From: Eubacteriales bacterium
GTDB taxonomy: Bacteria > Bacillota > Clostridia > Oscillospirales > QAKW01
Direction of reading: 5' to 3'
Assembly: GCA_045539335.1 (NCBI GenBank)
Contig: JAZQFD010000038.1
Coordinates: 40-64,039 of the forward strand
Length of the DNA: 64,000 nucleotides
The translations under genes were made by a program, and so were the position numbers. The notes beneath the pieces are model-generated. The model ran no database searches, was not told the DNA's origin, and worked only from the letters and a program-made list of their open reading frames with translations. Shown here piece by piece: positions 1,983 to 55,387 of the stretch (its first letter is position 1; each line of letters opens with the position of its first letter).

Positions 1983-4900
1983 TTAACCGAGAACGGCATT
2001 CAGAACCTCTGCAGAGCAGGGAACCATGTCTCTCATGTACTCGATTACATAAGGAGTGATCAGCTCATAACCATTGGCATTGGCATGAGTACCATCCTTG
2101 GTATTCTTCTCATAGATGGTTCCGATATCGCTCATGTTGAGTGCATTATTCAGGTCCTCATTATTGTAGAGATCCAGGTAAGCAATGCCCCACTTCTCGC
2201 AGACCTCTTCGGCAGCTGCGTACATTTGAGCATGCTTGGTGGTATCTGCCTTCAGCTTATAGGTGCTCATGAAGCCGATGGCCGCATTGTCACCATAAAG
2301 CTTGATGGCCTTATAGATGGTGTACTCCAACGCACCGGTGAAGGTGGATTGATCGAAGGTAGCGGGATCGAAGGAATCGGTAATGGTTCCGATACCGGAG
2401 ATCTTGCTTGCATCGTTGGTACCACCCTGCAGCAGTACATACTGATAATCATTAGCCGTGTACTTATCCAGCAGCTTATGAATGGAATCATACTTATCGG
2501 TGGTTGCATTACAGAAGTACCATCCGCTGGTACCGGCGTTGGTAGCGGCCAAACCGGTATCACGCTGCACACGCAGAGCCCAACCGCCGGGCTGAGTCTG
2601 AGTTGCCATGGTGTCATGGCTATAGAGACCATGGTTGATGGAGTCGCCTGCGAAGAGGCCGGCTTTGTTGAACAAAGCATCTGCTACTGCAGCATTGGAA
2701 ATGCCGGTCTGAGCAGTATAGTCTGCCACACCAAAGACCTTATTCTTCATCACCAGATACTTGCCGATCATGGAGGCAGGAACGTTCACACGAACGGACT
2801 CAACGCCGGCAGGAACCTTATAAGAATAAACCTTCAGACCCTTGGCGAAGGATTCGCCCTCCGTCATATTAACGGCGTTGATCAGTTCAACAGCCTTGCC
2901 GGAAGCATCAAAGGCATAGCCCAAAACAACCTGTGCGGTAGATGCAGGACCGATGGTGAGGACATCGCCTTCGGTTACATTAATCGCATGAGTCAGATTG
3001 TAGGAAACAGAGGAGGTGATAGCACCCTTCCAATCGACGGTTTCGGAGGTATGATCCAAAACGCCATCATAGAGGTTGATACCATCCTGCTTGCTCCAGT
3101 AAGCATAATAATCTTCAGTGGTCATCTTCTGACCCAAGGAGATCAGGAAGCGATCTGCATAGTTTGCAGAAGCATTCACCATAACGGTACCGGCCTCGGG
3201 AGCGGTATAAGAATAGATCTTATAGTTGCCGCCGAAGGAGGAAACCTCGGTCACACCTGCCACGCCAATGGTATCAGCGCCGGAGGTGGCACCGGTGAAG
3301 ACCAGCATATCAGCCTGAGATGCAGCGGTGGGACCAAACCATACGGTCTCGCCTGCCTTCACCGAGAAGGCAACGCCTGCATTCTGCAGATGGCTGGTGG
3401 AATTCTTAGAGCCAACAGGCTTCAGAATGGAACCGGGATGAGCCAGATGCCAGAGGATCATCTGAGCATCCACAACGGTGAGACCGGCCTTACCATCCAG
3501 TTCGCCGGCGGCGGGCTGGGTCATGGTGGGAGTGGCCAAACCAACGGTATCCTGCATAACCAGAACGGCATCGTCAGACAATACGCTGTTGGACTTGTTC
3601 ACATCGCCCCACAGGAAGTCATCGCCTTCTACAACGATGGCGCACTTGCCGTCGGCATAAGCGGTCACATTCTTGTTCTCATCGATAACATCCATGGTAG
3701 AGATGGTAACAGCATCGGGATAATTACCAAAGCCTACCGTGTCTTTCACCTTCAGGGTCAGCACGAATGCAGCATCATTGGCAGTCACCACGGTGGGATT
3801 GGCAACGATAACCTTAAAGGGTGCAATGGGAGCGGCGGCGCCGGTATTGTAGCCCATGAAGTAACGGAACAGGCCGGTGCCCTCTACATCGATGACAGAG
3901 AACTTATCAAAATCAAGATTTACATTGAAGGTAGCACCCTTCAGACCGGGATTGTTATCAAAGCCAACTTCAACCTTTACAAAGTCGCCGGGCTTCGCAA
4001 CACCCACAGGATTCACAGTGATATTACCCAGCACCATGGCAACCACGGTGGTATCCTCGGTAAAAATCACATTGGTAATATCGCCCTTCACATCCCAATA
4101 ACCATTCAAAATGGTGGTATCGGGCTGATAGAGATTACCGTTGATATCGGTATAACCGGTGGCAACAGCATTTCCATCCTTCTCGAAGGTAATGGTATGC
4201 TTCTCCTGCTTGCCGGCCAAAACCAGAGCGGGATATCCGGTCTTACCATTCATATTCCACTTAGCGGTAGCATCCACCAAAGCGGTGTTCATGGCATCCA
4301 CGGAGGTATAACCATTATTGCCATAGGTCTTTGCATTGGTAACGGCAACGGTTCCGTTGAACAAAGCGGCCATCTTATTGTTGCCGGTGAAGACATTGGA
4401 TGCGGTAACGGTGCCGGTTCCCAAGGTGGCAACGGCGGCAACGGCATTGCCCAGAGCGCCGAACACGCCAACATTATTGATCACAACAGCAGCATCGCCT
4501 GCATTGCCGATCAGCAAACCGGTGGTGGCATTGGCATTTACGGTGTAATCCACGGCTTCACTGTTCTTCACGGTAAGCTTACCGGTTGCGGTGCCCACCA
4601 AAGCAGCAACACCGGTGGAATTCAGAACAGAAATACCATCAATGGTAACATCGCCGGCAGTAGCATTCACCAAAACGGCGGCATCTGCTACTTGGGCATT
4701 CTCGAAGTTTACATTCTTCAGAGAAGCACCGGCATAATTCATAAAGAAGGAATGATCTGCAACAAAGTTTGCTACAGTATGGCCCAAACCATCAAAGGAA
4801 GCAACCATATCCTGGATGCCGGCAAAGTTCACGCCGGAGAGATTGATATCGGCATTGAGGTAAACCGTCTGCTCAGCAGGCAGGTACATTCCCAATACGG

Positions 4901-7900
4901 CCAGATACTCCAGATCGTCGCCATTATTAATGGTGTAGCCGGGAGCATCCTCATAGAGGAATGCCTCACCGATAGCGGGTAACTTGGTAACATCCTTCAC
5001 ATATACCATCAAATCGGCCAGAGCCTTGGCATCTGCATCAACAGCAGCCTGGGTGGTATATTCGGCATTCATAACCTTTTCCACCAAAGCATCAATGGCT
5101 TCGGCATTTTCAAAGTGAGCGCTATCCTTCAAAAGGAAGTAGAAGAGATTTTCCGTCAGCTCGGTGTAATCCAAGGGATTGACGGTTGCGGTCATGTTGA
5201 TCACTCGGGTGTAGTCTGCATCTGTTACAGGCTTCACGGTCAGTACATCACCGGACAGGCTTGCCAGATCCTTGCTATCGTCCTTCAGGACATAGCCGCT
5301 GACAAAGAGAATATCCAATACGGTCTCGGCATTGCCGGCCACATAGAGATACTCGGTGGTTCCATCATTCAGAGCCACAGCAACCTTGCGAAGCTGAACA
5401 GCCTTTTGCTCATCCAAGGTATTGGGATCGGTATTGTCGGCCAGAGCCAACAGACCGTCTTTCATGGTGAACCAGTTGCGCTCCACCAGATCGGTGCGCA
5501 CATAATTCTGGTTGATCAAATATCCAACCTCACCGGTATAATAGGCATCCTCTTCCAGGATCTTACCGGCAAAGGCAGCATCTTTGCTCATCAGCTTATC
5601 GCCAACGCCGTAAACATTCTTAAGACCATTGGCTGCGCCGCCCTTTTCATAGCCACCGACTACATAGCCGGACATGCCATAGGTGCAAAGGAGAGTACCG
5701 GCACCGAAGCTATTGTAAACAGTTGCTTCACCGTTCACCAGATCGGAAACCAGATCGCCGCCGAAGATGGTGCCCACATTATAGCAGGAATCCAATACAG
5801 CACCGGCATCGGCATAACCAACCAAACCAGCCACAGGGTTCTCATAAGCAGGGGCTTTGAGAGAAACAACCGAAACATCTGCAGCATTCCAAGCCTGCAG
5901 AACTTTTGCACTGGGACCGGCATGACCAATCAAGGCAGCAACGCCATAATCATCCAGATCCACATTATAGAATACATTTACTGCACCGCTGGCCACGCCC
6001 ACATCACGAACGGTGCCCAGCAAAACACTGATCATACCAACAGGAGCGCCATTGGTGGTAACAGCAAGATTCAAATTCTCAAAAGCATGACCATGACCAT
6101 TGAGGGTACCCTCTAAAATGGGCAGCGGCATAATCTCGGCATACTCCAAATCGATGCTGTCCACCAAGTGGAGGGTGATACCGGCGAAGGTTTCATCGTC
6201 ACGACCTTCATTGATCGCCTCAAACCAGTCATCCTTGGTGCCGATGGCATAATCGGTGGTTTTGCCGAACTGCTCATACAGATCACGCTGAGAATAAGGA
6301 ACGTAATTCGGATAAGTATTGACCAACTGCAGGTCCAGATTGTTGGCCAGCTTCACCAAATCCAAAATTTCATCATTGATGATGGCAAGATCGGCGCTGG
6401 GCTGGCCTTCCAGAGGACCATAGCTATCCACAAGGTCTTTTGCATCGGCAATCGCTACCTTAGCGGGATCGCTGTCCACAAAGAGATCCAGGTCATATTT
6501 TTGCAGTTTTTCGGAAACATTATTTACGGGGAGAAGATTTACTACCGTATTATTATATTGGACAACCACTTCCTTACCGGGCATCACAAAGGTATTGGTT
6601 TCATCGGTACCGGCAGGCAAGGTGGAACGATCCATCACAAACCCTTCATAATCGGGGGCGGTTACTTTAGAACCGGGAACATAGTAGATACTGCTCAGTT
6701 CTGCAGCTTCCTCGCCTCTGATTGCCATAATGGTGCGGAAAGGAGCAGGAACCTGAGAAGCAGTACCGGGAGCCACATGACCATCCTTGGTCAAGGTGTA
6801 AGTACCCTTGCCCATTTGGGTCAGCAGGTAAGCAAACTCACCACTGCCGGAAACCTTAACCATACTATTGGCCAAGGCCAGGTCCATATTCGCATTGAGG
6901 ACGCTGGGTTTTTCGGTAGCTGCATACATCACATTGGTGATGCGCTCCATGGCAACTGCGGCGGTGCCACGAACATAGCCCACCGGGCCGGCCTTGAAGG
7001 TAGAGCCGTCTGCCATCACAACATTGGCATCGCACCAGCTATCGCTGATGTTGAATGCGGGCATCTGAGCGTTACCGATCAGACCGCCGACGGTGGATTT
7101 TTCAACCGTCTCATTGACGCTGTTCATGTAGTAAACCGTACCGGAAACCGTACAGTTCATAACGGTGGCAGAGCCATAAGCTGCACCGACCAGCAGGCCG
7201 ACGCTGACATCACGCTTGCCCTCTTCACGGGTGGAGTAATCGTTGATATCATGCCAACGGGTTACTTTTGCACCCACCAGATTGATGTTGCGAACGGTGC
7301 CGCCGTTGATCTGGCCGACCAAGCCGGAGTTACCAACGTCACCGTTGTTGGGAGAATAAACATTCCAGTTATAAATTGTGTGGCCGTTACCTTCCAGCAC
7401 CACGTTGGCAAAACCATAGTTCTGCGAGGTTTGGTTACTGGTACCGCCCAAGGGGAAGCAGTAGGGAACGCCATTTGCATCACGAGGGATATTGGGCAAG
7501 GTGACATCCTTCATGTCGATATCGGCTGTGATATCAACCTTGGTGATATCATAGTCACTACCGGGGTTGTTCCAGCCCTGCCAGATCAGACCCAGAAGGT
7601 ACAGATCGTCAGCACTGTCAACGGTGACGGTGCCAACATTGATATAACCGCCGTTGTAGGAAGGCAGGAAGCGAGCATATACATCGCTGGCGCCCATCCA
7701 TGCAGCGCTGTCGCCATTGATGTTGGCGGAGGTATGAGGCAAACGACGAACGGCAACCTCTCCGTTCTTGGAGTAGGTCAGCACAGGATAATCATATCCG
7801 TCCACATTGGCGTAAGCCACAGTATAACCGTCTACTGCACCCAGCGTGTTAACATCGGTATCGGCAGTTGCGCCTGCATTCAGTTCAGCAGCCACCGTAC

Positions 7901-8843
7901 CGTCGGCAAATGCCATGGGAGCACGGGCACGATCGGTGTTGTAGTGGTCATAACCGAGAGTGTTGCGATAGAAGCTGTTGGCAGTGCCGGCAGTTTCCAC
8001 ATCTGCAGCAGACTGAGTAGACACACGATAGAGTGCGGTATAGAGATAACCGGTTGCACCGGCATTGTAGTAAGAATAGCGCAGGTCACCGGCATTATAA
8101 CTGTTCTTAAACTCGATGGTCGCATCGGCTTTACCTGCCATACCTGCGGCAAAGTAGATACCGCTGCAGACCAGACCTAAGTTATAGCAGTTATAGAACT
8201 TACAGCCTGCACCGGTGCTTCCTGAAATACTGGAAGCACAACCGCTGGAACGGCTACCGCCGATGGTGGTGGAAGCAACCCAGCAGTTGATGAACGAAGT
8301 ATTGGCGGAGTAACCGCTGATGGCAGCAGCAAAGAAACCACCGGCTACCAGACCGCTGGCGATACCCACGTTCTTAAAGGTGGCTCCGCTACTGTTGCCA
8401 AACAGACCGGAGGATTGAACGCCATAGACAAACAGATTGGTGATGACAAAGCCATTTCCGTCGAAAGTGCCGGAGAAGGTGCTCTTCGTCTTCACGCTGA
8501 CAATGCCGATCCCTTCAAAGGGAGCGGTGCCCATGTCGATATCGGCCATCTGATAGAAGGTGTAGCCCGCAAAGGTTTTAGCCTCAAAGTTTACAAGATC
8601 AGCCAGCTTATTCATACCGGCACGGTCGGTGATCTTGTAGGCCTTGGCATCGTCTAACAGGCCGTTCTTGATATCCGGCAATGCGGACGCATCATACAGA
8701 CCGGTCTCCGACACGATCTCGCCGTTAACCACATCCGTCGTGGCTGCGCCGGCAGGCAGCGCAAAGCAAGTCAGCAGAGAGACCAGCATCATGAGCGCAC
8801 ACAACGCGGATAATGCACGAGTCTTCTTTTTGGTGAACATCAT
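1983..8843 (-). CDS. Giant secreted multidomain protein: four beta-helix (GLUG-like) modules, cohesin-like module, dockerin-like module, C-terminal SGNH/GDSL hydrolase
   Basis: 2286-aa ORF with signal peptide MMFTKKKTRALSALCALMMLVSLLTCFALPAGA. Four copies of F/L-x-G-x-F/L-D/N-G-x-G-F/H-x-I/V/F-x-N occur at about aa 123, 478, 910 and 1346. See the sub-features for the C-terminal modules. GGAGGA RBS is present. Confidence 0.85.
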   Translation of the reverse strand: MMFTKKKTRALSALCALMMLVSLLTCFALPAGAATTDVVNGEIVSETGLYDASALPDIKNGLLDDAKAYKITDRAGMNKLADLVNFEAKTFAGYTFYQMADIDMGTAPFEGIGIVSVKTKSTFSGTFDGNGFVITNLFVYGVQSSGLFGNSSGATFKNVGIASGLVAGGFFAAAISGYSANTSFINCWVASTTIGGSRSSGCASSISGSTGAGCKFYNCYNLGLVCSGIYFAAGMAGKADATIEFKNSYNAGDLRYSYYNAGATGYLYTALYRVSTQSAADVETAGTANSFYRNTLGYDHYNTDRARAPMAFADGTVAAELNAGATADTDVNTLGAVDGYTVAYANVDGYDYPVLTYSKNGEVAVRRLPHTSANINGDSAAWMGASDVYARFLPSYNGGYINVGTVTVDSADDLYLLGLIWQGWNNPGSDYDITKVDITADIDMKDVTLPNIPRDANGVPYCFPLGGTSNQTSQNYGFANVVLEGNGHTIYNWNVYSPNNGDVGNSGLVGQINGGTVRNINLVGAKVTRWHDINDYSTREEGKRDVSVGLLVGAAYGSATVMNCTVSGTVYYMNSVNETVEKSTVGGLIGNAQMPAFNISDSWCDANVVMADGSTFKAGPVGYVRGTAAVAMERITNVMYAATEKPSVLNANMDLALANSMVKVSGSGEFAYLLTQMGKGTYTLTKDGHVAPGTASQVPAPFRTIMAIRGEEAAELSSIYYVPGSKVTAPDYEGFVMDRSTLPAGTDETNTFVMPGKEVVVQYNNTVVNLLPVNNVSEKLQKYDLDLFVDSDPAKVAIADAKDLVDSYGPLEGQPSADLAIINDEILDLVKLANNLDLQLVNTYPNYVPYSQRDLYEQFGKTTDYAIGTKDDWFEAINEGRDDETFAGITLHLVDSIDLEYAEIMPLPILEGTLNGHGHAFENLNLAVTTNGAPVGMISVLLGTVRDVGVASGAVNVFYNVDLDDYGVAALIGHAGPSAKVLQAWNAADVSVVSLKAPAYENPVAGLVGYADAGAVLDSCYNVGTIFGGDLVSDLVNGEATVYNSFGAGTLLCTYGMSGYVVGGYEKGGAANGLKNVYGVGDKLMSKDAAFAGKILEEDAYYTGEVGYLINQNYVRTDLVERNWFTMKDGLLALADNTDPNTLDEQKAVQLRKVAVALNDGTTEYLYVAGNAETVLDILFVSGYVLKDDSKDLASLSGDVLTVKPVTDADYTRVINMTATVNPLDYTELTENLFYFLLKDSAHFENAEAIDALVEKVMNAEYTTQAAVDADAKALADLMVYVKDVTKLPAIGEAFLYEDAPGYTINNGDDLEYLAVLGMYLPAEQTVYLNADINLSGVNFAGIQDMVASFDGLGHTVANFVADHSFFMNYAGASLKNVNFENAQVADAAVLVNATAGDVTIDGISVLNSTGVAALVGTATGKLTVKNSEAVDYTVNANATTGLLIGNAGDAAVVINNVGVFGALGNAVAAVATLGTGTVTASNVFTGNNKMAALFNGTVAVTNAKTYGNNGYTSVDAMNTALVDATAKWNMNGKTGYPALVLAGKQEKHTITFEKDGNAVATGYTDINGNLYQPDTTILNGYWDVKGDITNVIFTEDTTVVAMVLGNITVNPVGVAKPGDFVKVEVGFDNNPGLKGATFNVNLDFDKFSVIDVEGTGLFRYFMGYNTGAAAPIAPFKVIVANPTVVTANDAAFVLTLKVKDTVGFGNYPDAVTISTMDVIDENKNVTAYADGKCAIVVEGDDFLWGDVNKSNSVLSDDAVLVMQDTVGLATPTMTQPAAGELDGKAGLTVVDAQMILWHLAHPGSILKPVGSKNSTSHLQNAGVAFSVKAGETVWFGPTAASQADMLVFTGATSGADTIGVAGVTEVSSFGGNYKIYSYTAPEAGTVMVNASANYADRFLISLGQKMTTEDYYAYWSKQDGINLYDGVLDHTSETVDWKGAITSSVSYNLTHAINVTEGDVLTIGPASTAQVVLGYAFDASGKAVELINAVNMTEGESFAKGLKVYSYKVPAGVESVRVNVPASMIGKYLVMKNKVFGVADYTAQTGISNAAVADALFNKAGLFAGDSINHGLYSHDTMATQTQPGGWALRVQRDTGLAATNAGTSGWYFCNATTDKYDSIHKLLDKYTANDYQYVLLQGGTNDASKISGIGTITDSFDPATFDQSTFTGALEYTIYKAIKLYGDNAAIGFMSTYKLKADTTKHAQMYAAAEEVCEKWGIAYLDLYNNEDLNNALNMSDIGTIYEKNTKDGTHANANGYELITPYVIEYMRDMVPCSAEVLNAVLG
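1986..2666 (-). other. SGNH/GDSL hydrolase domain of the giant protein (aa ~2060-2286)
   Basis: Ordered blocks are FAGDSINHG (block I Ser), LLQGGTNDA (block III) and DGTHANANGY (block V Asp-x-x-His). Confidence 0.7.
3438..3614 (-). other. Dockerin-like module of the giant protein (aa ~1744-1802)
   Basis: Two Ca-loop/helix segments, GDVNKSNSVLSDDAVLVMQ and GELDGKAGLTVVDAQMILWHL. The reading frame was checked against the DNA at 3600-3602 (Val1748). Confidence 0.55.
3618..4028 (-). other. Cohesin-like module of the giant protein (aa ~1606-1742)
   Basis: ITVNPVGVAKPGDFVKVEVGFDNNPGLKGATFNVNLDFDKFSVIDVEG... fits the cohesin N-terminal strand pattern (v.v..v.a.pGd.v.v.v......l.g..f.l.yD...l). Confidence 0.55.
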
Positions 8844-37481: not shown

Positions 37482-37522
37482 AAAAGAGCGACCAAGGGCA
37501 GCCCTTGGTCGCTCTTTTTTTA
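37482..37522. terminator. Bidirectional terminator between mgtC-like (+) and dockerin-EEP D1 (-)
   Basis: 14-bp stem AGAGCGACCAAGGG/CCCTTGGTCGCTCT flanked by A4 and T7. Confidence 0.85.
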
Positions 37523-38875
37523 TGTAATAACAAATTCGGCAAAGACGCCTAAATGATCGGAAACCCAATAGCCATTCCACTTTTCATCTGCGATGGTATA
37601 GTTGGGATTATAGCCGCCGAAATTCTCCAGTTCGTTGAGATTTTCGTCGTAGGTTTCTTCCATAACATTGTAGCGCACGCAGGTGGCATGCTGGATATCG
37701 TCGGTGAAAAAGATATCGCCACGAACCGGAATGGTGCCATCCTCTTGCACATTTCTGCCCCAGCGGGGGAAGGTGCCCTGCAACTGGCCCATCAGTTCGC
37801 CCACATCGGTAAAGGTGGTGGCCAGTTCATTGAAGAAGGGGGCATCGGATGGATTGCAATAATCCAGATTCATATCGCCCCCCATCACAATGGGGGCATC
37901 GCCGTATTTGGCAGTAAGCTCTGCCTGTTTGTTGTTCAGAAGATCTGCCACCGCCTTACCATAAAGAGTGGCTTCTGCATCGTCGAGATTGGGGCCATGG
38001 CAGTTGATGAAGTAAAACTCCTCGCCGGTATGGTTATCATGGAGCTTGACCCAAACGGCTTGGCGCTGGTTGCCGTCATAATAAAGACCTTCCTCATTGG
38101 CGGTAACCTCCGGAGCACCGAAATAGTGGCTCATAACATCGGGGGTCTCAGAAAACCAAAAATTACCTTTAACGGGATTACCATCGGCATCGGTGCAAAG
38201 GTCAAAGCGCTCATCATTCCAGAAAACGGCGGCATATTCTTCGATATAAAGCGGCATCTCCGCAGAAGAACCCGCCCCCTCCCGCTCATTCAGCGAAAGA
38301 TCCACACGGCAAACAATATGGTTTTCATACTCGCCGGCAGGGAAAATGGTCTGCTCAAACAAGGTGCGCCAGTCGGTCCAGCGATATTCCTGCAGACCGA
38401 TTACATCGGGCTGATACTTTTCCATCAAGAGGGGCATCCGTTGCATGCGGTATTTCTTAGCATCCAGCGGCCGAGAACCACCGCCGCCATGAAGAATGTT
38501 TTGGATCATAAATTTGACCCGATAATTCTCAAAATGATAAATGCCGGTCTTATCATGGGTAGCCACCACCGCATCGTCGGGAGCGGCTTCCAGTTCTACC
38601 TCCCAGCCTGCGGCCTTGCGAAGCAGCAGCACCGCATCGCTCATATCGGCGGCACCGTCCCCGGAAACAAACATGTTCTTTTCTTGCTTGACGCCGGCAT
38701 AAGATTGACCTGCCAACAGTCTTAAAGTAACGGCCGCATCCAAAATATCAATGGTCCCGTCTTGATTCACATCACCGGGGGTTATGGCAGCCGCCGAAGC
38801 AGCAGGCGCTCCCAGCCATGTTCCCATAAAGATCGCAAACGCCAGCAAAGTGGCCGTCAACTTCTTTCTTTTCAT
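37520..38875 (-). CDS. Secreted dockerin-like plus EEP-family phosphoesterase, paralog D1
   Basis: Signal peptide ...WLGAPAASAAA and dockerin-like GDVNQDGTIDILDAAVTLRLLAG. EEP blocks are IQNILH, LQEY, NCHG, GGDMN, RGDIFF and SDHL. The ATG is at 38875 (GTG at 38878 is possible). Confidence 0.85.
   Translation of the reverse strand: MKRKKLTATLLAFAIFMGTWLGAPAASAAAITPGDVNQDGTIDILDAAVTLRLLAGQSYAGVKQEKNMFVSGDGAADMSDAVLLLRKAAGWEVELEAAPDDAVVATHDKTGIYHFENYRVKFMIQNILHGGGGSRPLDAKKYRMQRMPLLMEKYQPDVIGLQEYRWTDWRTLFEQTIFPAGEYENHIVCRVDLSLNEREGAGSSAEMPLYIEEYAAVFWNDERFDLCTDADGNPVKGNFWFSETPDVMSHYFGAPEVTANEEGLYYDGNQRQAVWVKLHDNHTGEEFYFINCHGPNLDDAEATLYGKAVADLLNNKQAELTAKYGDAPIVMGGDMNLDYCNPSDAPFFNELATTFTDVGELMGQLQGTFPRWGRNVQEDGTIPVRGDIFFTDDIQHATCVRYNVMEETYDENLNELENFGGYNPNYTIADEKWNGYWVSDHLGVFAEFVIT
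38603..38776 (-). other. Dockerin-like module of D1 (aa ~35-92)
   Basis: The first repeat is canonical (D-V-N-Q-D-G-T-I-D-I-L-D plus helix). The second, VSGDGAADMSDAVLLLRKAAGW, is degenerate. Confidence 0.6.
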
Positions 38876-38897
38876 CACGATAATCCTTTCTATAAAC

Positions 38898-38936: not shown

Positions 38937-40316
38937 TTAGGTTAATACAATATCGGCGCAGATTCCCAAGTGATCGGAAACCCAATAGCCGAAGCAACGG
39001 TCTTCCCCGTCCACGGTACCTTCAGGGTTAAAGCCGCCGAAGTTTTCCAGCTCATTAAGATTCTCGTCGTAGGTTTCTTCCAATACCTTATAATTGGCAA
39101 TCGATAAATCATCGTCGTTAAAGGTAAAGAAATAGTCGATACGGGCTTTAATGGTACCATCCGGCTGTACATTGCGGCTAAAATTGGGGAAGGTGCCCTG
39201 CATATTGCCGGTAGCCACTGCCAGATCCGTAAAGCCGTAGTTCACAAACTGGTCATAGGCAACTCGGTCGCAGGCCAGGGCATAATTTAAGTTAAAGTCG
39301 CCGCCCATAATAACGGGGGCTTCGCCGTACTTTTCAAAATACAACTGCACCCGATCATTGAGCAGCTTTACGGCGGGGATCAAACTCGCTTCTACACCGG
39401 CCGCCGTATCGCTGGCGTTGGGGCCGTGAACGGCATAGTAATAAAATTCTTTGCCGGTATGATTGTCGTGGAGTTTGACCCACACGCATTGGCGCTGACG
39501 GCCATCAATGTAGTTCCCTTCATCATCTTGCCCCACAGATTGGGTACAACCGAAATAAGTAGACATCACATCGGGAGTCTCGGAAAACCAGAAGTTGCCC
39601 TTAATGGCATTGCCCTCGCTATCCAGGCAAAGGTCAAACCGCTCGTCCTTCCAAAAGATTGCCATCTTTTCTTCGATGTACAAGGGCATCTCAGGGGTGG
39701 ATCCTGCGCCCTCCCGCTCGTTTAAAGAAAGGTCCACACGGCAAACGATATGGTTTTCATGAGTGCTGGCAGGGAAAATGGTATTTTCAAACAGGTTGTA
39801 CCAGTCACTCCACCGATACTCCTGCACGCTGCAAATATCCGGCTGATATTTGCCCATCAAAACCGGCATCCGCTGCATGCGGTATTTCTTTTTGTCCAAC
39901 GCTCTGGCGCCGCCGCCTGCATGAAGAATATTCTGATTAAGCACCCGCATGGAATAATCATCGTAGTAATAGAACAGTGATTCCTCATGCTGGGCAACCG
40001 TTGCGTCCGATTGGGCCGCCTGCATTTCTACATCCCATCCGGCGGCATTGCGGAGCATCAGCACCACATCGGCCATATTGGCAACGCCGTCACCACTAAC
40101 AAACATACCCTTCTCTTGCTTGGTGCCATTATAAGCGGCACCGGAAAGCAACCGCAGGCTGACGGCAACATCCAAAATATTGGATACGCCATCTCCGTTT
40201 ACATCGCCGGGTACGATGGTAGCTGCTTGAGCCGGCAATTGAGCGACGCCCAAGGTGCCAACCAGCATCACTCCCGCCAAAAGCCCGCAGATTTTTCTTT
40301 TCATGGTGCCCATCAT
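38937..40316 (-). CDS. Secreted dockerin-like plus EEP-family phosphoesterase, paralog D2
   Basis: The start at 40316 (GGAGGA RBS, MMGTMKRKICGLLAG...) avoids overlap with D3. Dockerin-like GDVNGDGVSNILDVAVSLRLLSG. EEP blocks are NQNILH, VQEY, AVHG, GGDFN, RIDYFF and SDHL. Confidence 0.85.
   Translation of the reverse strand: MMGTMKRKICGLLAGVMLVGTLGVAQLPAQAATIVPGDVNGDGVSNILDVAVSLRLLSGAAYNGTKQEKGMFVSGDGVANMADVVLMLRNAAGWDVEMQAAQSDATVAQHEESLFYYYDDYSMRVLNQNILHAGGGARALDKKKYRMQRMPVLMGKYQPDICSVQEYRWSDWYNLFENTIFPASTHENHIVCRVDLSLNEREGAGSTPEMPLYIEEKMAIFWKDERFDLCLDSEGNAIKGNFWFSETPDVMSTYFGCTQSVGQDDEGNYIDGRQRQCVWVKLHDNHTGKEFYYYAVHGPNASDTAAGVEASLIPAVKLLNDRVQLYFEKYGEAPVIMGGDFNLNYALACDRVAYDQFVNYGFTDLAVATGNMQGTFPNFSRNVQPDGTIKARIDYFFTFNDDDLSIANYKVLEETYDENLNELENFGGFNPEGTVDGEDRCFGYWVSDHLGICADIVLT
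40032..40208 (-). other. Dockerin-like module of D2
   Basis: GDVNGDGVSNILDVAVSLRLLSG ... VSGDGVANMADVVLMLRNAAGW. Confidence 0.6.
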
Positions 40317-40335
40317 GGGATCCTCCACTTTCTTC

Positions 40336-41676
40336 TTATTCAAAGACCATTTCCGAAACGATTCCATAGTGGTCTGAGCAAACACCCTCTACCGTTACCG
40401 TTTGGCCGGTGGTAGAATCGGTATAGGTTGCAGGGGCCACATCCTTCACAACCTTATAGCTGACCACATTGGGCTTGCCGTTGGTAAAGAAATAGTCGAT
40501 GCGGTTCAGTGCGGTTCCGGGCTGCCCGTTCTTGTAATCGTTATAAGCACTGAAGGTGCCGCCTTCATCGCCCATCAGTACCGCCACGTCGGTAAGGTTT
40601 TCTCCTAAGGGCACATACGCCTCAGTGGTGGGATACAGGTTAAAGTCACCACTGATTACGGCCGGATAATCTCCTGCAATGCTCTTTAAGCGATCCACTA
40701 CCAACTGAGAAGATTTGGTGCGGGATTCAATGGTCGTGGAGGCATTCAAATGAGTGTCGAAATAATAGAAGATGTCACCGGTCAAATTATCCTTCAGCTT
40801 TACCCAGATACACAGACGGTTGCGGTTATCCACATAGTAGCTGACGGTGGTATCGTTGTAGGTGCCGGTTGCAATATCACTGTCCGTCAAGGTGGTATCA
40901 TGGGGCGCAGAGTTCACATCGGGAGTGGCGCTGAGCCAATAATGTCCCTGATCCAGGCAGGTGAACCGACTGGTCTTCCAGAAAATTGCCAAACGCTCAT
41001 CGGGCTGATAGGCCTCCTCGGGAACGCCGGTACCGCCACGGGCATAAGCCAAAGCCTTCGCCTCGGTTTCGGTATCCCGAGCAGGATCGGCACGGGTTAC
41101 CACATACTTACTGTAGACCGAAGGGTCTAGAATGGTGGTCGATGCATTAGTGCCTTCCCAAGCGGCGAACCAAGTACTATGCCGATACTCCTGCACACCG
41201 ATCACATCGGGGCTATACAGGGGGATGATTTTTTGGAATCGCTGAATACGGGCGGCGCGGCTATTGGGGTCTGCATCGTTGGAATGGCGGATGTTTTGGC
41301 TCATAAATTTCACATAGGCGCCGTAGTAGAAGACATGGTTATCCTCATTCTCCTCCACGGTAACACCGGAGGGGATACCGGACAATTCCACATCCCAACC
41401 GGCGGCCTTGCGAAGCAACAGAACTGCATCGCTCATATCAGCCACATTATCACCACTGACAAAAAGGCTCTCCTTTTGAACGGTACCGCCATAAGAAGCG
41501 CCGGAATACAGCCGCAAGGAAATGGCGGCATCCAACACGTTGACCTTACCGTCTTTATTCACATCACCGGGGGTCACAGTTGCCGCATGAGAGGAAAATT
41601 GCGTCATTCCCATCATACAAACCACCGTTACCACTCCGCAAAGAGCAGAAATTTTACGAATCCATGTGTTTTTCAT
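40336..41676 (-). CDS. Secreted dockerin-like plus EEP-family phosphoesterase, paralog D3 (most divergent)
   Basis: Signal peptide ...MTQFSSHAA and dockerin-like GDVNKDGKVNVLDAAISLRLYSG. EEP blocks are SQNIRH, VQEY, DTHL, SGDFN, RIDYFF and SDHY. GGAGG RBS is present. Confidence 0.85.
   Translation of the reverse strand: MKNTWIRKISALCGVVTVVCMMGMTQFSSHAATVTPGDVNKDGKVNVLDAAISLRLYSGASYGGTVQKESLFVSGDNVADMSDAVLLLRKAAGWDVELSGIPSGVTVEENEDNHVFYYGAYVKFMSQNIRHSNDADPNSRAARIQRFQKIIPLYSPDVIGVQEYRHSTWFAAWEGTNASTTILDPSVYSKYVVTRADPARDTETEAKALAYARGGTGVPEEAYQPDERLAIFWKTSRFTCLDQGHYWLSATPDVNSAPHDTTLTDSDIATGTYNDTTVSYYVDNRNRLCIWVKLKDNLTGDIFYYFDTHLNASTTIESRTKSSQLVVDRLKSIAGDYPAVISGDFNLYPTTEAYVPLGENLTDVAVLMGDEGGTFSAYNDYKNGQPGTALNRIDYFFTNGKPNVVSYKVVKDVAPATYTDSTTGQTVTVEGVCSDHYGIVSEMVFE
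41395..41568 (-). other. Dockerin-like module of D3
   Basis: GDVNKDGKVNVLDAAISLRLYSG ... VSGDNVADMSDAVLLLRKAAGW. Confidence 0.6.
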
Positions 41677-49735: not shown

Positions 49736-49770
49736 TCGAACCCCTCAAAATTAAAAAATATTACAGATAC

Positions 49771-49827: not shown

Positions 49828-49838
49828 TTTAATGTTTT

Positions 49839-50625: not shown

Positions 50626-50655
50626 TTGACACTGCCTTCTTTTTAGTGTTATACT
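50626..50655 (+). promoter_or_regulatory. Candidate promoter for the cohesin / TIM-barrel operon (TTGACA-18 nt-TATACT)
   Basis: Hexamers read directly about 40 nt upstream of the ATG at 50694. Confidence 0.5.
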
Positions 50656-50693: not shown

Positions 50694-51920
50694 ATGAAAC
50701 GATTACTCTGTATTATTCTTTGCGTACTGTTGATGATTCCCTCGGTAAGCGCCGCCGGCGAAATGACTCTTACGGTGGATCGTGTGCAGGGCGAAGTGGG
50801 CGAGACGGTAACCATCACCGGTCGGGTAACCAACGCCCCCAAGTGCTCTTCTTTCCGTGTGATCCTCACTTACGATAAAACCTGCCTGGAAATCACCGAT
50901 GCCAGAATCGGCAAGAGCGTTTCCGGCAACTCCTCCGTCAATAAAAATACCACCTATCAAAACAAAAGCGCCGTGGTGGCTCTTTCTGCCAGCACCGGCA
51001 CCGCTCTGAGCGGCAATGCCGAGCTTTTTGTGCTGACCGCCAAGATCATCGGCGTGCCTGCCGACGGCAGCACCTCCACCACCCTGACGGTGGCTCATCA
51101 GGAGTTCTTTGATGTGGATCTTAAGAGGGTTTCTCCTGCCTCGGTTCGTTCCGGTCTGCTGATTTATACCAAGCTGCCCTCCACCGGACCTGCAACCCCC
51201 TCCAATCCCTCTACTCCTTCCACCCCCTCTACCCCTTCCAATCCCTCTACTCCCTCTACTCCTTCTACTCCCTCTACCCCCTCTACCCCCGCTTTGCCTG
51301 AGGGCGATTGGGGTGTCAACGATAAGGGCGATGTGGTTGTAAAGGATGAAAACGGAAACGAGAATAAATTTGAGGCCGACATTCCCGAGGATCTGAAGCC
51401 CGGCGATAAGGTGGATGTAGACCTGAAGGATGAAAACGGCAATGTGGTTGGCTCTGTTACCGTGGAAAAAGACGAGCAGGGCAATGTGATCGTCAAGGAT
51501 CCCGTTTCCAAGCCCTCCACCGAGTCTACCGGCAAGCCCAACAGCAACTGGGTGGTGGCCGGCGATCAGTTTGTTTACATCGATGAAGAAGGCAATACCC
51601 ACCTTTATGATTCCTCCACCGGCGTTCCTCAGAACCCCGGCGACCGTGCTGAGATCGAATTGAAGGATGAAAACGGCAACATCATCGGAAATGTGGTGGT
51701 GGAAAAAGGGGAAGACGGCACCATCCATGTTGTGGAAGATAAAATCAATATCGCCGAAGACGGCGAGGGCAAAAAAGCCATCTGGCCTTGGATCGTCTTC
51801 CCCGCCATCTTTATTTTAGGCGGCGGCGCTGTTGTATTGTGCATCTATCTGAGCAATAAAAAGAATCAGAAACCTGCTGTAAAAAAAGACGAGGAGCCTG
51901 TTGAGGAGCCTGTCGAGTAA
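50694..51920 (+). CDS. Membrane-anchored cohesin-domain protein (signal peptide, one cohesin, Pro/Ser/Thr linker, KDENGN repeat region, C-terminal TM anchor)
   Basis: Signal peptide MKRLLCIILCVLLMIPSVSAA and cohesin pattern LTVDRVQGEVGETVTITGRVTNAPKCSSFRVILTYDKTCLEI. The linker is (PSTPSN)n. The C-terminal anchor is IWPWIVFPAIFILGGGAVVLCIYL followed by a basic-then-acidic tail. Confidence 0.8.
   Translation: MKRLLCIILCVLLMIPSVSAAGEMTLTVDRVQGEVGETVTITGRVTNAPKCSSFRVILTYDKTCLEITDARIGKSVSGNSSVNKNTTYQNKSAVVALSASTGTALSGNAELFVLTAKIIGVPADGSTSTTLTVAHQEFFDVDLKRVSPASVRSGLLIYTKLPSTGPATPSNPSTPSTPSTPSNPSTPSTPSTPSTPSTPALPEGDWGVNDKGDVVVKDENGNENKFEADIPEDLKPGDKVDVDLKDENGNVVGSVTVEKDEQGNVIVKDPVSKPSTESTGKPNSNWVVAGDQFVYIDEEGNTHLYDSSTGVPQNPGDRAEIELKDENGNIIGNVVVEKGEDGTIHVVEDKINIAEDGEGKKAIWPWIVFPAIFILGGGAVVLCIYLSNKKNQKPAVKKDEEPVEEPVE
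50757..51173 (+). other. Cohesin-like module (aa ~22-160)
   Basis: See the parent CDS. The strand pattern ends around LLIYTK. Confidence 0.6.
51196..51290 (+). repeat. 9-bp-period repeat encoding the PSNPSTPSTPSTP... linker
   Basis: CCCTCTACT/CCTTCCACC-type units read directly. Confidence 0.85.
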
Positions 51921-51949: not shown

Positions 51950-52819
51950 ATGAAAATTGCTATCAAAAATGGACTGTTACTGAAAAACTGGTCGGCAGAA
52001 GAAAGCCTGAAAATGATTAAAGACGCCGGCTTCGACGGAGTGGATCTGGATGTGGCCACCATGATGCGGGAAAAATACGATCCCGACGGCCGCTGGAGCG
52101 GCGAGGCTTATTTGGAAGAAGCCAAAAAGCTGGGCGCCTATGCCAAAGAATTGGGGCTGACCATTGTGCAGGCCTCCGGCGTTGGCAACGATCATCACTT
52201 TGATTTTGAAACGGTGATGCTGCCCCAGATTCTGCGCAGTATTGAGATCTCCGCCGCAGTGGGCGCTCCCTATGTGATCATTCCTGCGCTGACCCGTGGT
52301 GCTTATCGGGGCAGTGAAGAAAAGTTCTTTGAGTCCAACATGGAATTCTACGGTCAGCTGGCAGATACCGCCAAGGCCTGCGGCATTAAGATCGCTTTGG
52401 AAAACCAGGTTGCTTTCGATTGGGCGCACTTTGTGCTCAACCATCATGTTTGCTCCCATGCAGAGGAATTCTGCAGATACATCGACACCCTCAACGAAAC
52501 CCACGGAGATCTCTTCGTGGCCTGCGTCAACCCTGCAAGAGCCCCTCTAACCGGTCAGGAGCCCGAGGCCTTGACCAAAGGCTTGGGGGATCGGATGAAG
52601 CTGGTACATATTAACGACAACGATTACCGCAAGGATAATAAGGCCGTTCCCGGCTATGGCGCTCTGGACATCAATCGGATGGTCACCGCTCTGAAGGACG
52701 CTTCCTATAAAGGCTATTTCACCCTGCAGGTAGGCACCACCCTTCCCGCTGAGCTGATGCCTTCCGCTCTGGCTCATATGGCAGAGATTGCTCGCTACTG
52801 GGCAGGAAAGGCAGAGTAA
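51950..52819 (+). CDS. Xylose-isomerase-like TIM-barrel protein (sugar phosphate isomerase/epimerase family), paralog T1, divergent motif residues
   Basis: Family blocks ALENQ and LVHINDND are present. However it has CVNPARA where T2-T4 have C(L/V)D(I/V)GH, and FTLQV where they have (F/Y)(T/A)LE(C/V). Confidence 0.75.
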   Translation: MKIAIKNGLLLKNWSAEESLKMIKDAGFDGVDLDVATMMREKYDPDGRWSGEAYLEEAKKLGAYAKELGLTIVQASGVGNDHHFDFETVMLPQILRSIEISAAVGAPYVIIPALTRGAYRGSEEKFFESNMEFYGQLADTAKACGIKIALENQVAFDWAHFVLNHHVCSHAEEFCRYIDTLNETHGDLFVACVNPARAPLTGQEPEALTKGLGDRMKLVHINDNDYRKDNKAVPGYGALDINRMVTALKDASYKGYFTLQVGTTLPAELMPSALAHMAEIARYWAGKAE

Positions 52820-52825
52820 GCGCCC

Positions 52826-53689
52826 ATGAAAACCGTTGCCAACCTTGGAGGCATTGCCAAGGGCACGCCGGAGGAGAAGCTGGCCATGATTAAGGCCGCC
52901 GGCTTTGATGCCGCCGATATTACCATTTGCGGAGCGGCCCTCTCCCTGCTGGAAGGAGACTATATCGCCAGAGCCAAAGCCCTTCGTGCCAAGGCCGACG
53001 AATTAGGACTTCCCATTCTGCAGGCCCACGCTCCCTTTGACAGCACCACCGCTTACGCCGAAGAAAAATTCGAGCTGACCAAGCGAAGCATTGAGTTTGC
53101 CGCCCTCTGCGGCGCCGAATTCATTGTGGTGCATCCCATTCAGCATCTGAGCTACTTTGACGATCCTAAAAATCCCGAGATCTTATTCGACTATAACATG
53201 GAGTTCTACGGTCGGTTAAAGCCCATTGCCGATGCATACGGCATTAAGATCGCCACCGAGAATATGTGGCGCACCAATAAGATGCGTCAGGTGATCGACC
53301 ATTCGGTCTGCTCCCGTCCGGAGGAATTCTGCCGCTATGTAGACGGCCTGCAGCAACGCTACGGTGATACCTTCACCGGCTGTCTGGACATTGGACACAC
53401 GGTGCTGGTGGGAGTAGACCCCTGCCAAATGATCCGCACCATGGGTTCCCGCATCGGCACCCTCCATGTACACGACAACGATTATCATAAAGACCTGCAT
53501 CTGGCGCCCGGTCTTGGCTCTATGGATTATGATGCCATCACCGCCGCCTTAAAAGAGATCGGATACAAAGGCCCCTTTACCTTGGAATGCCACACCTGCT
53601 CGCTGGATCAGGAGGGCACCGCCCTGTATCTGCAGTTTTTGGCCGGCACCGCCCGGCTGCTTGCCGACAAAAGTGAGGAAACATTATGA
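52826..53689 (+). CDS. Xylose-isomerase-like TIM-barrel protein, paralog T2
   Basis: Family blocks VVHP, ATENMW, CLDIGHT, LHVHDNDYH and FTLECH. Confidence 0.8.
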   Translation: MKTVANLGGIAKGTPEEKLAMIKAAGFDAADITICGAALSLLEGDYIARAKALRAKADELGLPILQAHAPFDSTTAYAEEKFELTKRSIEFAALCGAEFIVVHPIQHLSYFDDPKNPEILFDYNMEFYGRLKPIADAYGIKIATENMWRTNKMRQVIDHSVCSRPEEFCRYVDGLQQRYGDTFTGCLDIGHTVLVGVDPCQMIRTMGSRIGTLHVHDNDYHKDLHLAPGLGSMDYDAITAALKEIGYKGPFTLECHTCSLDQEGTALYLQFLAGTARLLADKSEETL

Positions 53690-54507
53690 GAATTGCCATG
53701 AACACCGGCACCTTGGTGGGCCGGTATACCATTGAAGAAGCCATGCGCTTATCCAAAGCCGCCGGCTTTGACAGCGTGGATATTGCCATGAACGTTTTGA
53801 CCCAACCCGGCTGGGAGGGGGATCAATGCTATGAGCAGGCGGTAAAGATCCGCAAGCTCTCGGAGGAGCTGGATCTGCCGGTCACCCAGACCCATGCCGG
53901 CGGCGATAAGGTTAAAAGCGCCAAGGTTACTGCCCTTTTGGGCTGTCCGGTGATGGTGATCCATCCCCGCATCATCCTGCCTCATGTGGGCTATGAAGAC
54001 AAAAACTACGAAGCCAATATGGAATATTTGGCCGCCTTTGCCCCTCTGGCCGAGGAAAACAATATTAAAATCGCCGTGGAGAATATGTTTAAGTGGGACC
54101 TGAAGCGGGAAGTGATCAACCACAGTACCTGCTCCACCACCGCCGAATTCTGCCGCTATATGAAAGGTCTTCATGAGCGGTTCGGCGATCTTTTCGGCGC
54201 TTGCGTGGATGTGGGACATCTGGCCCTGGTGGGCACCGATCCCGCCGAGACCATTCGTGCCTTGGGCGATGATCTCCTGGCCCTTCATGTACACGATAAT
54301 GACCTGCACACCGATCAACATACCATTCCGGGCGCCGGCGTTATCAACTTTGTGGAAGTATCGAAAGCATTGAAGGATATCAAGTATAAAGGCGATTATG
54401 CACTGGAGGTTGGTCTGCACCATCCCAAAGAGCTGTTGCCGGTGGCTGTGGAGTATCTGGCTCAGGTCTGCCGCTATTTCGCCGATCTTGCATCCAATGA
54501 GGGTTAA
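53686..54507 (+). CDS. Xylose-isomerase-like TIM-barrel protein, paralog T3
   Basis: Family blocks VIHP, AVENMF, CVDVGHL, LHVHDNDLH and YALEVG. ATGA overlap with T2. Confidence 0.8.
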   Translation: MRIAMNTGTLVGRYTIEEAMRLSKAAGFDSVDIAMNVLTQPGWEGDQCYEQAVKIRKLSEELDLPVTQTHAGGDKVKSAKVTALLGCPVMVIHPRIILPHVGYEDKNYEANMEYLAAFAPLAEENNIKIAVENMFKWDLKREVINHSTCSTTAEFCRYMKGLHERFGDLFGACVDVGHLALVGTDPAETIRALGDDLLALHVHDNDLHTDQHTIPGAGVINFVEVSKALKDIKYKGDYALEVGLHHPKELLPVAVEYLAQVCRYFADLASNEG

Positions 54508-54510
54508 ACG

Positions 54511-55350
54511 ATGAAAATTGCCATGAACGCCTCCCGCTTTTGGGGGCACACCTTAGAAGAAATCTTAATGTTTTGCAAAGAGGCCGGTTTTGATGCGGTG
54601 GATATTCCCGTTCAAAATATTTTAGGCCTCCCCGAATGGGATGAGGAGCATTATGTGGAATCCGCCAAAAAGATCAAGGCGCTTTGCGAGGAACTGGATC
54701 TGCCGGTAGTGCAAGCCCATGCCGGCGGCAGAACCTTTGAGGATATTTGCCGTGCCATCCGCATTGCCGCCCTTTTGGGTTCTCCCTCTATTGTGGTGCA
54801 TCCCAAAATTGCCCGCCCCTATAAAGGGCAGGAAGAAAAATATTTCGAGATGAACATGGAGTTCTACGGTTCCTTTGCTCCCCTGCTGAAGGAATTGGGG
54901 ATCAAGATCGCCGTGGAAAACATGTTTGGCTGGGATCTGGAGCGGATGGTTATCTGCCATAATATCGTTTCCCAAACCCAAGAGTTTTTGCGGTATATGG
55001 ACACCTTGGAGGAACGGTATCCCGGTTGCTTCACCGCCTGTGTGGACATTGGGCACATGGCCTTGGTGGGCACCGATCTTTATGAGGTGATCACCGCACT
55101 GGGCAAAAAGAATTATCTCACCGCCCTTCATGTCCATGATAATGATACCCATATGGATATGCACGCACCCATCAATATCGGCACCATCGATTTCAAAAAG
55201 GTGGCCGCCGCCTTAAAGGAAATCAACTATCCCGGCGTCTTCACCTTGGAGGTGGGAATTCACGGAAACATTCCCCATGATCTGTACCCCGCCACCTTCC
55301 GCTATATTGCGAGAGTCACTCGCTTTTACGCCGATCTGGCTTCCAACTAA
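54511..55350 (+). CDS. Xylose-isomerase-like TIM-barrel protein, paralog T4
   Basis: Family blocks VVHP, AVENMF, CVDIGHM, LHVHDNDTH and FTLEVG. Confidence 0.8.
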   Translation: MKIAMNASRFWGHTLEEILMFCKEAGFDAVDIPVQNILGLPEWDEEHYVESAKKIKALCEELDLPVVQAHAGGRTFEDICRAIRIAALLGSPSIVVHPKIARPYKGQEEKYFEMNMEFYGSFAPLLKELGIKIAVENMFGWDLERMVICHNIVSQTQEFLRYMDTLEERYPGCFTACVDIGHMALVGTDLYEVITALGKKNYLTALHVHDNDTHMDMHAPINIGTIDFKKVAAALKEINYPGVFTLEVGIHGNIPHDLYPATFRYIARVTRFYADLASN

Positions 55351-55352: not shown

Positions 55353-55387
55353 TAAAAAACCGCAACGCTTTGGCGTTGCGGTTTTTT
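55353..55387. terminator. Bidirectional terminator between T4 (+) and the his operon end (-)
   Basis: 14-bp stem AAAAACCGCAACGC/GCGTTGCGGTTTTT. Confidence 0.85.

Follow-up and report, generated by a model that had tools for sequence, protein, structure and literature searches.

The 64,000-nucleotide stretch of contig JAZQFD010000038.1 from a Eubacteriales bacterium (hereafter, the window) encodes a 408-amino-acid (aa) protein that sequence analysis and structure prediction support as a secreted single-cohesin protein anchored by a C-terminal transmembrane helix. With modest confidence, we read this protein as probably a monovalent anchoring scaffoldin of an uncultured gut bacterium of the Clostridia that would hold secreted dockerin proteins at the cell surface, its likeliest partners being three nearby dockerin-bearing enzymes of the EEP (Exo_endo_phos) family, here called Doc-EEPs. 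These enzymes are the best candidates on three grounds: no other dockerins in the window are significant, their genes are close by, and they co-occur with the cohesin in related genomes. The gene and the parts of its product are as follows, with confidence in the AlphaFold2 model given as pLDDT, a predicted score of the local distance difference test.

50694..51920, plus strand: the cohesin gene, predicted to encode the 408-aa membrane-anchored single-cohesin protein (open reading frame [ORF] as listed; Pfam, AlphaFold2, Foldseek).
50694..50753, plus strand: signal peptide, residues 1-20, MKRLLCIILCVLLMIPSVSA, without a lipobox (hydropathy; N-terminus conserved across the family).
50763..51173, plus strand: cohesin module, residues 24-160 (Pfam Cohesin, pLDDT >90, Foldseek).
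51186..51284, plus strand: Pro/Ser/Thr linker, residues 165-197, predicted disordered (pLDDT <50; composition of the sequence).
51294..51509, plus strand: beta stalk module 1, residues 201-272, six-stranded, an uncharacterised domain (self-alignment, AlphaFold2).
51537..51749, plus strand: beta stalk module 2, residues 282-352, six-stranded, 38% identical to module 1.
51783..51857, plus strand: C-terminal transmembrane helix, residues 364-388 (Kyte-Doolittle 1.7-2.4; helix at residues 364-390 in the model).
51858..51917, plus strand: charged tail, NKKNQKPAVKKDEEPVEEPVE, predicted cytoplasmic (sequence; fits the positive-inside rule).

By sequence and predicted fold, the protein carries a genuine cohesin module, an identity that follows from its Pfam match and from its structural likeness to solved cohesins. 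Pfam PF00963 (Cohesin) matched residues 24-131 with 45.5 bits (gathering score, 24.1; E = 1.2e-11). The AlphaFold2 model of the 408-aa protein, built from a 21-sequence family alignment, had a pLDDT of >90 across cohesin residues 24-160, and in a Foldseek comparison with PDB, the top matches were all cohesins (E = 1e-10 to 1e-7), with TM-scores, normalised to the target, of 0.74-0.81 to the solved structures 2xdh, 1aoh, 4dh2, 5nrm, and 6kgc. The best match by E-value was 2xdh, a non-cellulosomal cohesin from Archaeoglobus (E = 1.2e-10). Type I cohesins (1aoh, 4dh2, 5nrm, 6kgc) fell at 0.74-0.81, as against 0.5-0.6 for type II cohesins, and several of the matched cohesins were crystallised in complex with dockerins. 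Across the window, a hidden Markov model (HMM) of the cohesin family identified the target as the sole significant cohesin. The gene start is preceded by a good Shine-Dalgarno sequence, as read from the DNA, and the N-terminal hydrophobic stretch of the product (Kyte-Doolittle >2) ends in SVSA, followed by AGE.

Beyond the linker, a unit of about 72 aa occurs in two copies (38% identity, E = 2e-18), both of which are confidently predicted to be all-beta in the full-length model; modelled alone, the module reached a pLDDT of 91.6. It had no significant match in PDB (best E = 0.35), BFVD (best E = 0.11), or Pfam. Assignment as an Ig, FlgD, or cold-shock-like domain was considered and rejected, as the sequence matches were sub-threshold and there were no structural matches. 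The module may be an undescribed stalk domain specific to the transmembrane-anchored members of this cohesin subfamily. C-terminal to the stalk, hydropathy placed a transmembrane segment at about residues 363-388 with a Lys-rich tail after it. The KKKK-type tail is conserved in the family; on the predicted cytoplasmic side it is short (20 aa) and has no signalling domain. No SLH domain was found in the 408-aa protein, even at E up to 10, and LPXTG before the transmembrane helix is absent in the target and in its family. An internal LPSTG (residues 171-175, nucleotides [nt] 51204-51218), directly following the cohesin and about 190 residues from the transmembrane helix, was rejected as a sortase site, being neither conserved in homologues nor followed by a transmembrane helix, and is taken as chance. 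An earlier sequence-only reading of this DNA had described a signal peptide, a cohesin-like module, a Pro/Ser/Thr linker, a hydrophobic C-terminal helix, and a charged tail, with neither an SLH domain nor a terminal sortase signal, and had pointed to PF00963 and the C-terminal helix as places to look. All of this was borne out by hydropathy, Pfam, AlphaFold2, the domain scan, and the homologue alignment. The two repeats that it had recognised also exist, but not as units of about 35 aa: that motif is the conserved C-terminal half of the 72-aa unit.

The candidate partners and their dockerin-free paralogs lie on the other strand.

37520..38878, minus strand: Doc-EEP A, 452 aa; dockerin at residues 34-87 (nt 38618-38779), then an EEP domain (Dockerin_1, 31.6 bits).
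38937..40385, minus strand: Doc-EEP B; dockerin at residues 59-110 of the listed ORF (nt 40056-40211) (Dockerin_1, 21.8 bits).
40336..41676, minus strand: Doc-EEP C, 446 aa; signal peptide, dockerin at residues 36-89 (nt 41410-41571), and EEP phosphatase domain (Dockerin_1, 27.0 bits; Exo_endo_phos, 46.5 bits).
12772-21425, minus strand: six tandem EEP paralogs, 437-490 aa, with a lipoprotein signal (...MLASC) and no dockerin.

All three Doc-EEPs are secreted, have a dockerin at the mature N-terminus, and match Exo_endo_phos; the dockerin consensus reads GDVNxDGxxxxLDAAxxLRLL ... FVSGDxxADMSDAVLLLRKAAGW. Against a gathering cut-off of 22.9 bits for Pfam Dockerin_1 (PF00404), the matches of Doc-EEP A and Doc-EEP C cover profile positions 1-54 of 57, including both F-hand repeats, and the dockerin of Doc-EEP A also matches 6kg9/6kgc. 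That of Doc-EEP B falls just under the cut-off and was detected with E = 1e-8 by an HMM made from other dockerins of the lineage. From the listed GTG start (40385), the Doc-EEP B gene would share 50 nt with the end of Doc-EEP C and place 27 extra residues ahead of a typical signal peptide. A start at the internal ATG at 40304 (MKRKICGLL...) is more probable and does away with the overlap. The three genes are 9-13 kb from the cohesin gene, in a cluster divergent from the cohesin promoter region.

A dockerin census, in which a dockerin HMM was run over all 131 window ORFs of at least 100 aa, returned the three Doc-EEPs as the only significant dockerins, plus a weak match in a 2,286-aa giant protein. 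The sequence-only reading had counted four dockerin-like modules in the window; the three on EEP enzymes stand by Pfam Dockerin_1, and the weak match in the giant is the fourth. Its remark that the 64 kb held no secreted dockerin-bearing glycoside hydrolase (GH) agrees with the census, which found no dockerin on any GH among the 131 ORFs: the GH10 of the window has no signal peptide, and the GH77, whose N-terminus was not inspected, has no match to a dockerin by Pfam or the dockerin HMM. Likewise, its proposal of cargo other than carbohydrate-active enzymes (CAZymes) holds insofar as the window dockerins are on EEP enzymes, but the SGNH esterase of the giant, which it had also named as cargo, is uncertain in that role. 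It had included neither the six lipoprotein EEPs nor the operon context and the enzyme subfamily described below. A classical cellulosome, as defined in PMC11557425, has at least one scaffoldin with at least two cohesins and at least one dockerin-GH fusion; by the family cohesin HMM, Pfam, and the dockerin census, the window holds neither, Pfam adding to the one cohesin only a sub-threshold segment in the giant protein.

The likely nature of the cargo follows from a profile built from all nine window EEPs and their homologues. This profile matched PDB entries 3mpr (E = 1.7e-36) and 4c1r (E = 6.5e-36), both BT3783, over profile positions 117-447, the whole catalytic domain, and the catalytic residues N127, E164, D335, N337, D441, and H442 were invariant in all 16 sequences compared. 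BT3783, the mannose-6-phosphatase of the yeast-mannan utilisation locus of Bacteroides thetaiotaomicron, was assayed as a phosphatase on phosphorylated sugars and a phosphorylated high-mannose N-glycan (PMC4978465). Because of the profile match, the invariant catalytic residues, and these assays, the EEP enzymes are likely sugar- or glycan-phosphatase-like members of the BT3783 subfamily. BT3783 (3MPR/4C1R) is the closest characterised relative of the nine window EEP domains, yet its published construct and structure comprise an EEP domain of about 290 aa only, with no dockerin (PMC4978465), whereas the window enzymes bear an N-terminal dockerin (three) or a lipobox and acidic linker (six). 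The linkers of the lipoprotein EEPs are long, acidic, and of low complexity, with DPEDTK, DDPSD, or EPSKD repeats. The lipoprotein EEPs and the Doc-EEPs fall in the same BT3783-like subfamily at about 20% identity, and this genome is thus predicted to display one enzyme family by two anchoring routes.

The family to which the cohesin belongs was explored by an exhaustive phmmer search with the cohesin alone, as a full-protein query was swamped by the Pro/Ser/Thr linker. This search returned 365 relatives with an E-value below 1e-3. Of the 64 cluster representatives nearest to the target, 22 ended in a transmembrane helix with a basic tail, 15 in a dockerin, and 1 in a sortase-like SPETG followed by a transmembrane helix, with the other 26 being fragments or having other endings. 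One or two of the 72-aa stalk modules were present in 20 of the 22 transmembrane-ended representatives, and the module was never found in the dockerin-ended or sortase-ended relatives among the 64. The cohesin-stalk-transmembrane architecture thus spans at least 20 divergent clusters from uncultured Clostridia, for which one source name was retrieved, "hypothetical protein." Five matches in genome collections all came from metagenome-assembled genomes (MAGs) of uncultured "Clostridia bacterium" or "Eubacteriales bacterium," one of them from roe-deer rectum. Farther out, the relatives of the cohesin are scaffoldins that carry several cohesins and have a dockerin at the C terminus. For the Doc-EEPs, 11 relatives were found.

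Gene order was compared across the related loci (numbered with the prefix L). Those of the close relatives (L002/L011, L003, L004/L010, L007) are syntenic with the window: Doc-EEPs, hexapeptide transferase, FAD protein, Bmp-type ABC transporter, xanthine phosphoribosyltransferase, and a 230-aa lipoprotein, after which comes, on the opposite strand, the cohesin gene, then 3-4 AP_endonuc_2 genes. The arrangement of cohesin and (Doc-)EEP genes recurs in the related MAGs or contigs L003, L007, and L011, and dockerins were encoded in all close relatives for which there was enough context, L007 having two Doc-EEPs (orthologs of B and C) versus three in the window. Between the window and L003, L007, L010, and L011, identity was 73-95% for the ABC-transporter block, 40-55% for the cohesin, and 53-62% for the 230-aa lipoprotein, so that divergence is faster in the surface proteins than in the transporter block; for most TIM-barrel paralogs, identity was 30-75%. 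Distant members of the family (L001, L005, L013-L017) have a different neighbourhood: an AraC regulator, the cohesin, a ManA-class mannose-6-phosphate isomerase (NCBIfam manA, 117.4 bits versus a cut-off of 116.2), and then an AP_endonuc_2 gene, the stop codon of one gene often overlapping the start codon of the next. Pointing away from this operon are genes for a cytoplasmic protein of about 1,045 aa, an inositol-monophosphatase-family protein, and a GH78. The linkage conserved family-wide is therefore that to a sugar-catabolism operon, and linkage to Doc-EEPs is seen only in near relatives.

Further cohesin-dockerin proteins accompany the family. In L002/L011, two X-cohesin-dockerin proteins of about 775 aa (13877-18579, minus strand), with an N-terminal region of unknown nature, are encoded 2.7 kb downstream of the cohesin ortholog; the 776-aa protein matched Pfam Cohesin with 25.7 bits and Dockerin with 32.4 bits. 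In L006 (2503-3237), a secreted 244-aa cohesin-dockerin adaptor, P0011, has a cohesin of the same subfamily and adjoins groES/groEL. By their domain content, these proteins point to a small multi-component cohesin-dockerin network in the lineage, and they make multi-tier assemblies plausible there.

In the window, the cohesin gene is flanked by the following elements.

50626..50655, plus strand: sigma70-like promoter, TTGACA-18-TATACT with an extended TG (11/12 consensus matches), about 40 nt upstream of the cohesin gene.
50586-50558, minus strand: divergent promoter for the gene of the 230-aa lipoprotein, back to back with the cohesin promoter.
51950..55350, plus strand: four AP_endonuc_2 (xylose-isomerase-like TIM barrel) paralogs, in the same direction as the cohesin gene.
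55354..55387, no strand assigned: strong bidirectional hairpin terminator that closes the operon (15-bp stem, A and T runs on the flanks).

The first AP_endonuc_2 gene begins after a gap of 29 nt, and its adjacency to the cohesin gene is conserved in all related loci. Pfam matched the first and fourth of these paralogs, and sub-threshold NCBIfam matches of epimerase/isomerase type were obtained for all four. Because the cohesin gene has its own promoter and no plus-strand terminator was found between it and position 55354, it probably heads a five-gene operon with the four paralogs, predicted to be co-transcribed.

The proposed function can be pictured as follows. Sec would export the scaffoldin, with cleavage of the signal peptide after SVSA, and the single C-terminal transmembrane helix would then keep it in the cytoplasmic membrane with the basic tail inside the cell. 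Outside, the two beta-modules of about 72 aa and the Pro/Ser/Thr linker of about 33 residues would form a stalk that carries the single N-terminal cohesin through the cell wall or to a point above it, where it would bind a calcium-dependent dockerin and so keep a secreted protein on the cell surface. The three Doc-EEPs would be captured, directly or via an adaptor, and the surface complex would dephosphorylate phosphorylated sugars or glycans. With the cohesin gene first in an operon of cytoplasmic sugar isomerase/epimerase-like enzymes, surface display may be tied to a carbohydrate-utilisation programme; the ManA-class isomerase adjoining the cohesin gene in the distant members counts in favor of this operon context.

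Several observations weigh against this account. The second F-hand of the EEP dockerins is atypical, lacking the first Asp (FVSGDG...), and the substrate of the enzymes is suggested by homology of roughly 20-25% identity. In the distant family members, no dockerin gene was found within 10 kb of the cohesin, so gene neighbourhood does not mark the EEPs as the partner for the family in general, and in the close relatives the proximity of Doc-EEP and cohesin genes may just reflect overall synteny. Other partners exist in the lineage, moreover, given the further cohesin-dockerin proteins in related MAGs.

This last point bears on a tiered assembly, which we hold to be unlikely, in which the membrane cohesin would bind the dockerin of an adaptor (the giant protein or a cohesin-dockerin protein encoded elsewhere) and the cohesin of the adaptor would recruit the Doc-EEPs. 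The giant protein of the window has the following location and composition.

1983..8843, minus strand: 2,286-aa secreted protein with GLUG-like repeats, cohesin-like and dockerin-like segments, and an SGNH esterase domain.

Its cohesin-like segment (residues ~1616-1741, nt 3621-3998) was sub-threshold by Pfam (21.2 bits) and aligned with the cohesin family in register over 117 columns by hhalign (E = 0.029); the dockerin-like segment (residues 1743-1799, nt 3447-3617) had no Pfam match and gave E = 0.03-0.15 with lineage dockerin HMMs that excluded it. The C-terminal SGNH domain (residues 2064-2261, nt 2061-2654), already seen in the sequence-only reading, is confirmed by Lipase_GDSL_2 (47.4 bits). 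GLUG-like modules of about 190 aa, at residues ~7-193 and ~1286-1436, share homology with the N-terminal parts of the L002 cohesin-dockerin proteins, and there are also two unassigned beta regions. For a tiered arrangement speak the clear X-cohesin-dockerin proteins so close to the cohesin ortholog, the P0011 adaptor of the same subfamily, the commonness of short cohesin-dockerin relatives, the shared N-terminal repeats, and the presence in the giant of cohesin-like and dockerin-like segments in the same order; yet every cohesin or dockerin signal in the giant is sub-threshold, a search for homologues of its cohesin-dockerin segment found none, and no P0011-type adaptor is present in the window. 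The giant protein is a possible adaptor or cargo, its membership in the system being uncertain, and the three-tier model that the sequence-only reading had built on it has sub-threshold segments as its footing there while drawing some plausibility from the X-cohesin-dockerin proteins and P0011 of related MAGs.

It is quite unlikely, in our assessment, that the protein is an ordinary membrane anchor of a larger amylosome- or mucinolysome-like system, in which other parts of the genome would specify multi-cohesin scaffoldins and numerous dockerin-CAZymes and the EEPs would be minor accessory cargo. The multi-cohesin scaffoldins among its distant relatives and its place in a carbohydrate-utilisation operon would suit such a system, and PMC11557425 and PMC13463774 place transmembrane-anchored single cohesins in genomes with dozens of dockerin proteins. 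However, neither a dockerin-GH nor a multi-cohesin scaffoldin was seen in the 64 kb and about 150 kb of related loci, and the 11 Doc-EEP relatives, the approximately 20 cohesin-stalk-transmembrane clusters, and the five genome-collection matches, all from uncultured Clostridia/Eubacteriales MAGs, also stand on the other side. Very unlikely, we believe, is that the protein is no dockerin receptor and that its cohesin fold serves as an adhesin or as a carbohydrate/ligand-binding or sensing module tied to the AraC-regulated sugar operon. The widest genomic association of the family is indeed with AraC, ManA-like, and TIM-barrel genes, often through overlapping stop and start codons, rather than with dockerin genes, and the top structural match by E-value is the non-cellulosomal 2xdh; nevertheless, no close relative with sufficient context lacks dockerins, fusions of the same cohesin subfamily to dockerins occur in adaptor-like proteins, as is typical of cohesin-dockerin networks, and the 20-aa cytoplasmic tail has no signalling domain. 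The anchoring scaffoldin with the Doc-EEPs as likeliest partners remains the reading we favor. A bolder extension of it, to which we give a small chance, is that the lineage runs a dedicated surface apparatus for phosphate removal, in which nine BT3783-like EEPs (six as lipoproteins and three held by the cohesin via its stalk) would act on phospho-glycans, for example yeast phosphomannan or teichoic-acid-like polymers, rather than in polysaccharide backbone cleavage, and in which cytoplasmic mannose-6-phosphate and sugar isomerases would share their regulation with the cohesin.

Several known systems offer points of comparison. R. flavefaciens ScaE is a sortase-anchored monovalent anchoring scaffoldin. 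The same is true of Limousia cSca5, a part of the mucinolysome, an assembly that degrades mucin glycans (PMC12997984). The target resembles both in its N-terminal single cohesin on a stalk, theirs fixing dockerin-bearing scaffoldins or enzymes to the Gram-positive surface. They are linked covalently to peptidoglycan via a C-terminal LPXTG, whereas no LPXTG lies next to the transmembrane helix of the target, so that the latter protein should stay in the membrane. In Clostridium thermocellum, the single cohesins of OlpA, OlpC, and SdbA (PDB 3ul4, 4dh2, 2bm3) tether dockerin proteins at the surface, as proposed for the target, and the OlpC and OlpA cohesins are among its good structural matches (TM-scores of 0.74-0.80); unlike the target, however, these proteins are anchored by SLH repeats, and identity is 13-25%. 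ClcC/ClcD of Cellulosilyticum lentocellum is a minimal cellulosome-like pair around a single-cohesin protein (PMC13487519), similar to the target in being a reduced cohesin-dockerin system, but ClcC has a carbohydrate-binding module that targets cellulose, its partner is a GH5 cellulase from the adjacent gene, and the word "membrane" occurs nowhere in PMC13487519.

The closest parallels, from other gut bacteria, have been catalogued in silico (2024, 2026). Transmembrane-anchored single-cohesin scaffoldins are predicted for H. luporum, for C. cibarium, and for Lachnoclostridium sp. MSJ-17, which is non-cellulolytic (WP_216523161.1, WP_216522914.1) (PMC11557425) and for R. difficilis, R. sp. HUN007, JE7B6, zg921, and zg924 (PMC13463774); such proteins are proposed there as non-SLH, non-sortase anchors that would join a cohesin-dockerin assembly straight to the membrane, with partners that are not experimentally defined, and some belong to non-cellulolytic bacteria with few dockerin-GHs. 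The target shares with them one cohesin plus a transmembrane helix at the C terminus. What sets the target family apart is its specific beta stalk of modules of about 72 aa, its conserved operon partners, and the nearby dockerins on EEP phosphatases, to none of which the passages that a keyword search retrieved from those papers refer. In the literature searched, no paper was found with both "dockerin" and "Exo_endo_phos," and phosphatases are not listed in the R. flavefaciens dockerin census. The principle of anchoring is thus already known; what the literature searched does not describe is the family-specific stalk module, the link to the operon, and EEP phosphatases as candidate cargo.

Between the cohesin and Doc-EEP genes lies a co-directional block (41965-50531, minus strand) encoding the 230-aa lipoprotein, xanthine phosphoribosyltransferase, a Bmp/PnrA-type ABC transporter (binding protein, ATPase, and two permeases), an FAD protein, and a hexapeptide transferase. 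The transporter and xanthine phosphoribosyltransferase might be a sign of nucleoside scavenging, and they prompted us to consider whether the EEPs act as nucleases or in such scavenging. This role was ranked below that of a sugar phosphatase because the EEP profile matched BT3783 at about 1e-36 and nuclease-type EEPs at about 1e-4 only, and partially. Elsewhere in the window, a 519-aa ORF without a signal peptide (27655-29214, plus strand) had no match in Pfam (E ≤ 0.01) or NCBIfam (E ≤ 1e-5); GC content at 26-28 kb is 0.44, slightly AT-richer. Many long antisense ORFs (among them 50703-51728, minus strand; 14275-16431 and 1938-4982, plus strand) were rejected as genes, since they lie opposite domain-supported genes, and the one at 14275-16431 had no family match when scanned. 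The longest, at 1,014 aa, is opposite the giant-protein gene. They are probably by-products of coding-strand composition.

Cohesin-dockerin assemblies are increasingly recognised beyond cellulose degradation, in amylosomes and mucinolysomes, and the locus described here bears on how such assemblies are fixed to the cell without SLH domains or sortase signals. It is a compact, testable case: a single cohesin anchored in the membrane, three nearby enzymes of a non-CAZyme class as candidate dockerin partners, and, as a built-in comparison, six lipoprotein versions of the same EEP family. Should the proposed pairing prove false, the protein would join the other uncharacterised representatives of an architecture that in silico surveys have already catalogued. 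Should it prove true, cohesin-dockerin display would extend to sugar or glycan phosphatases, a family-specific stalk domain without a match in PDB, BFVD, or Pfam would be defined, and surface display in these uncultured Clostridia would be linked to an AraC-type sugar operon.

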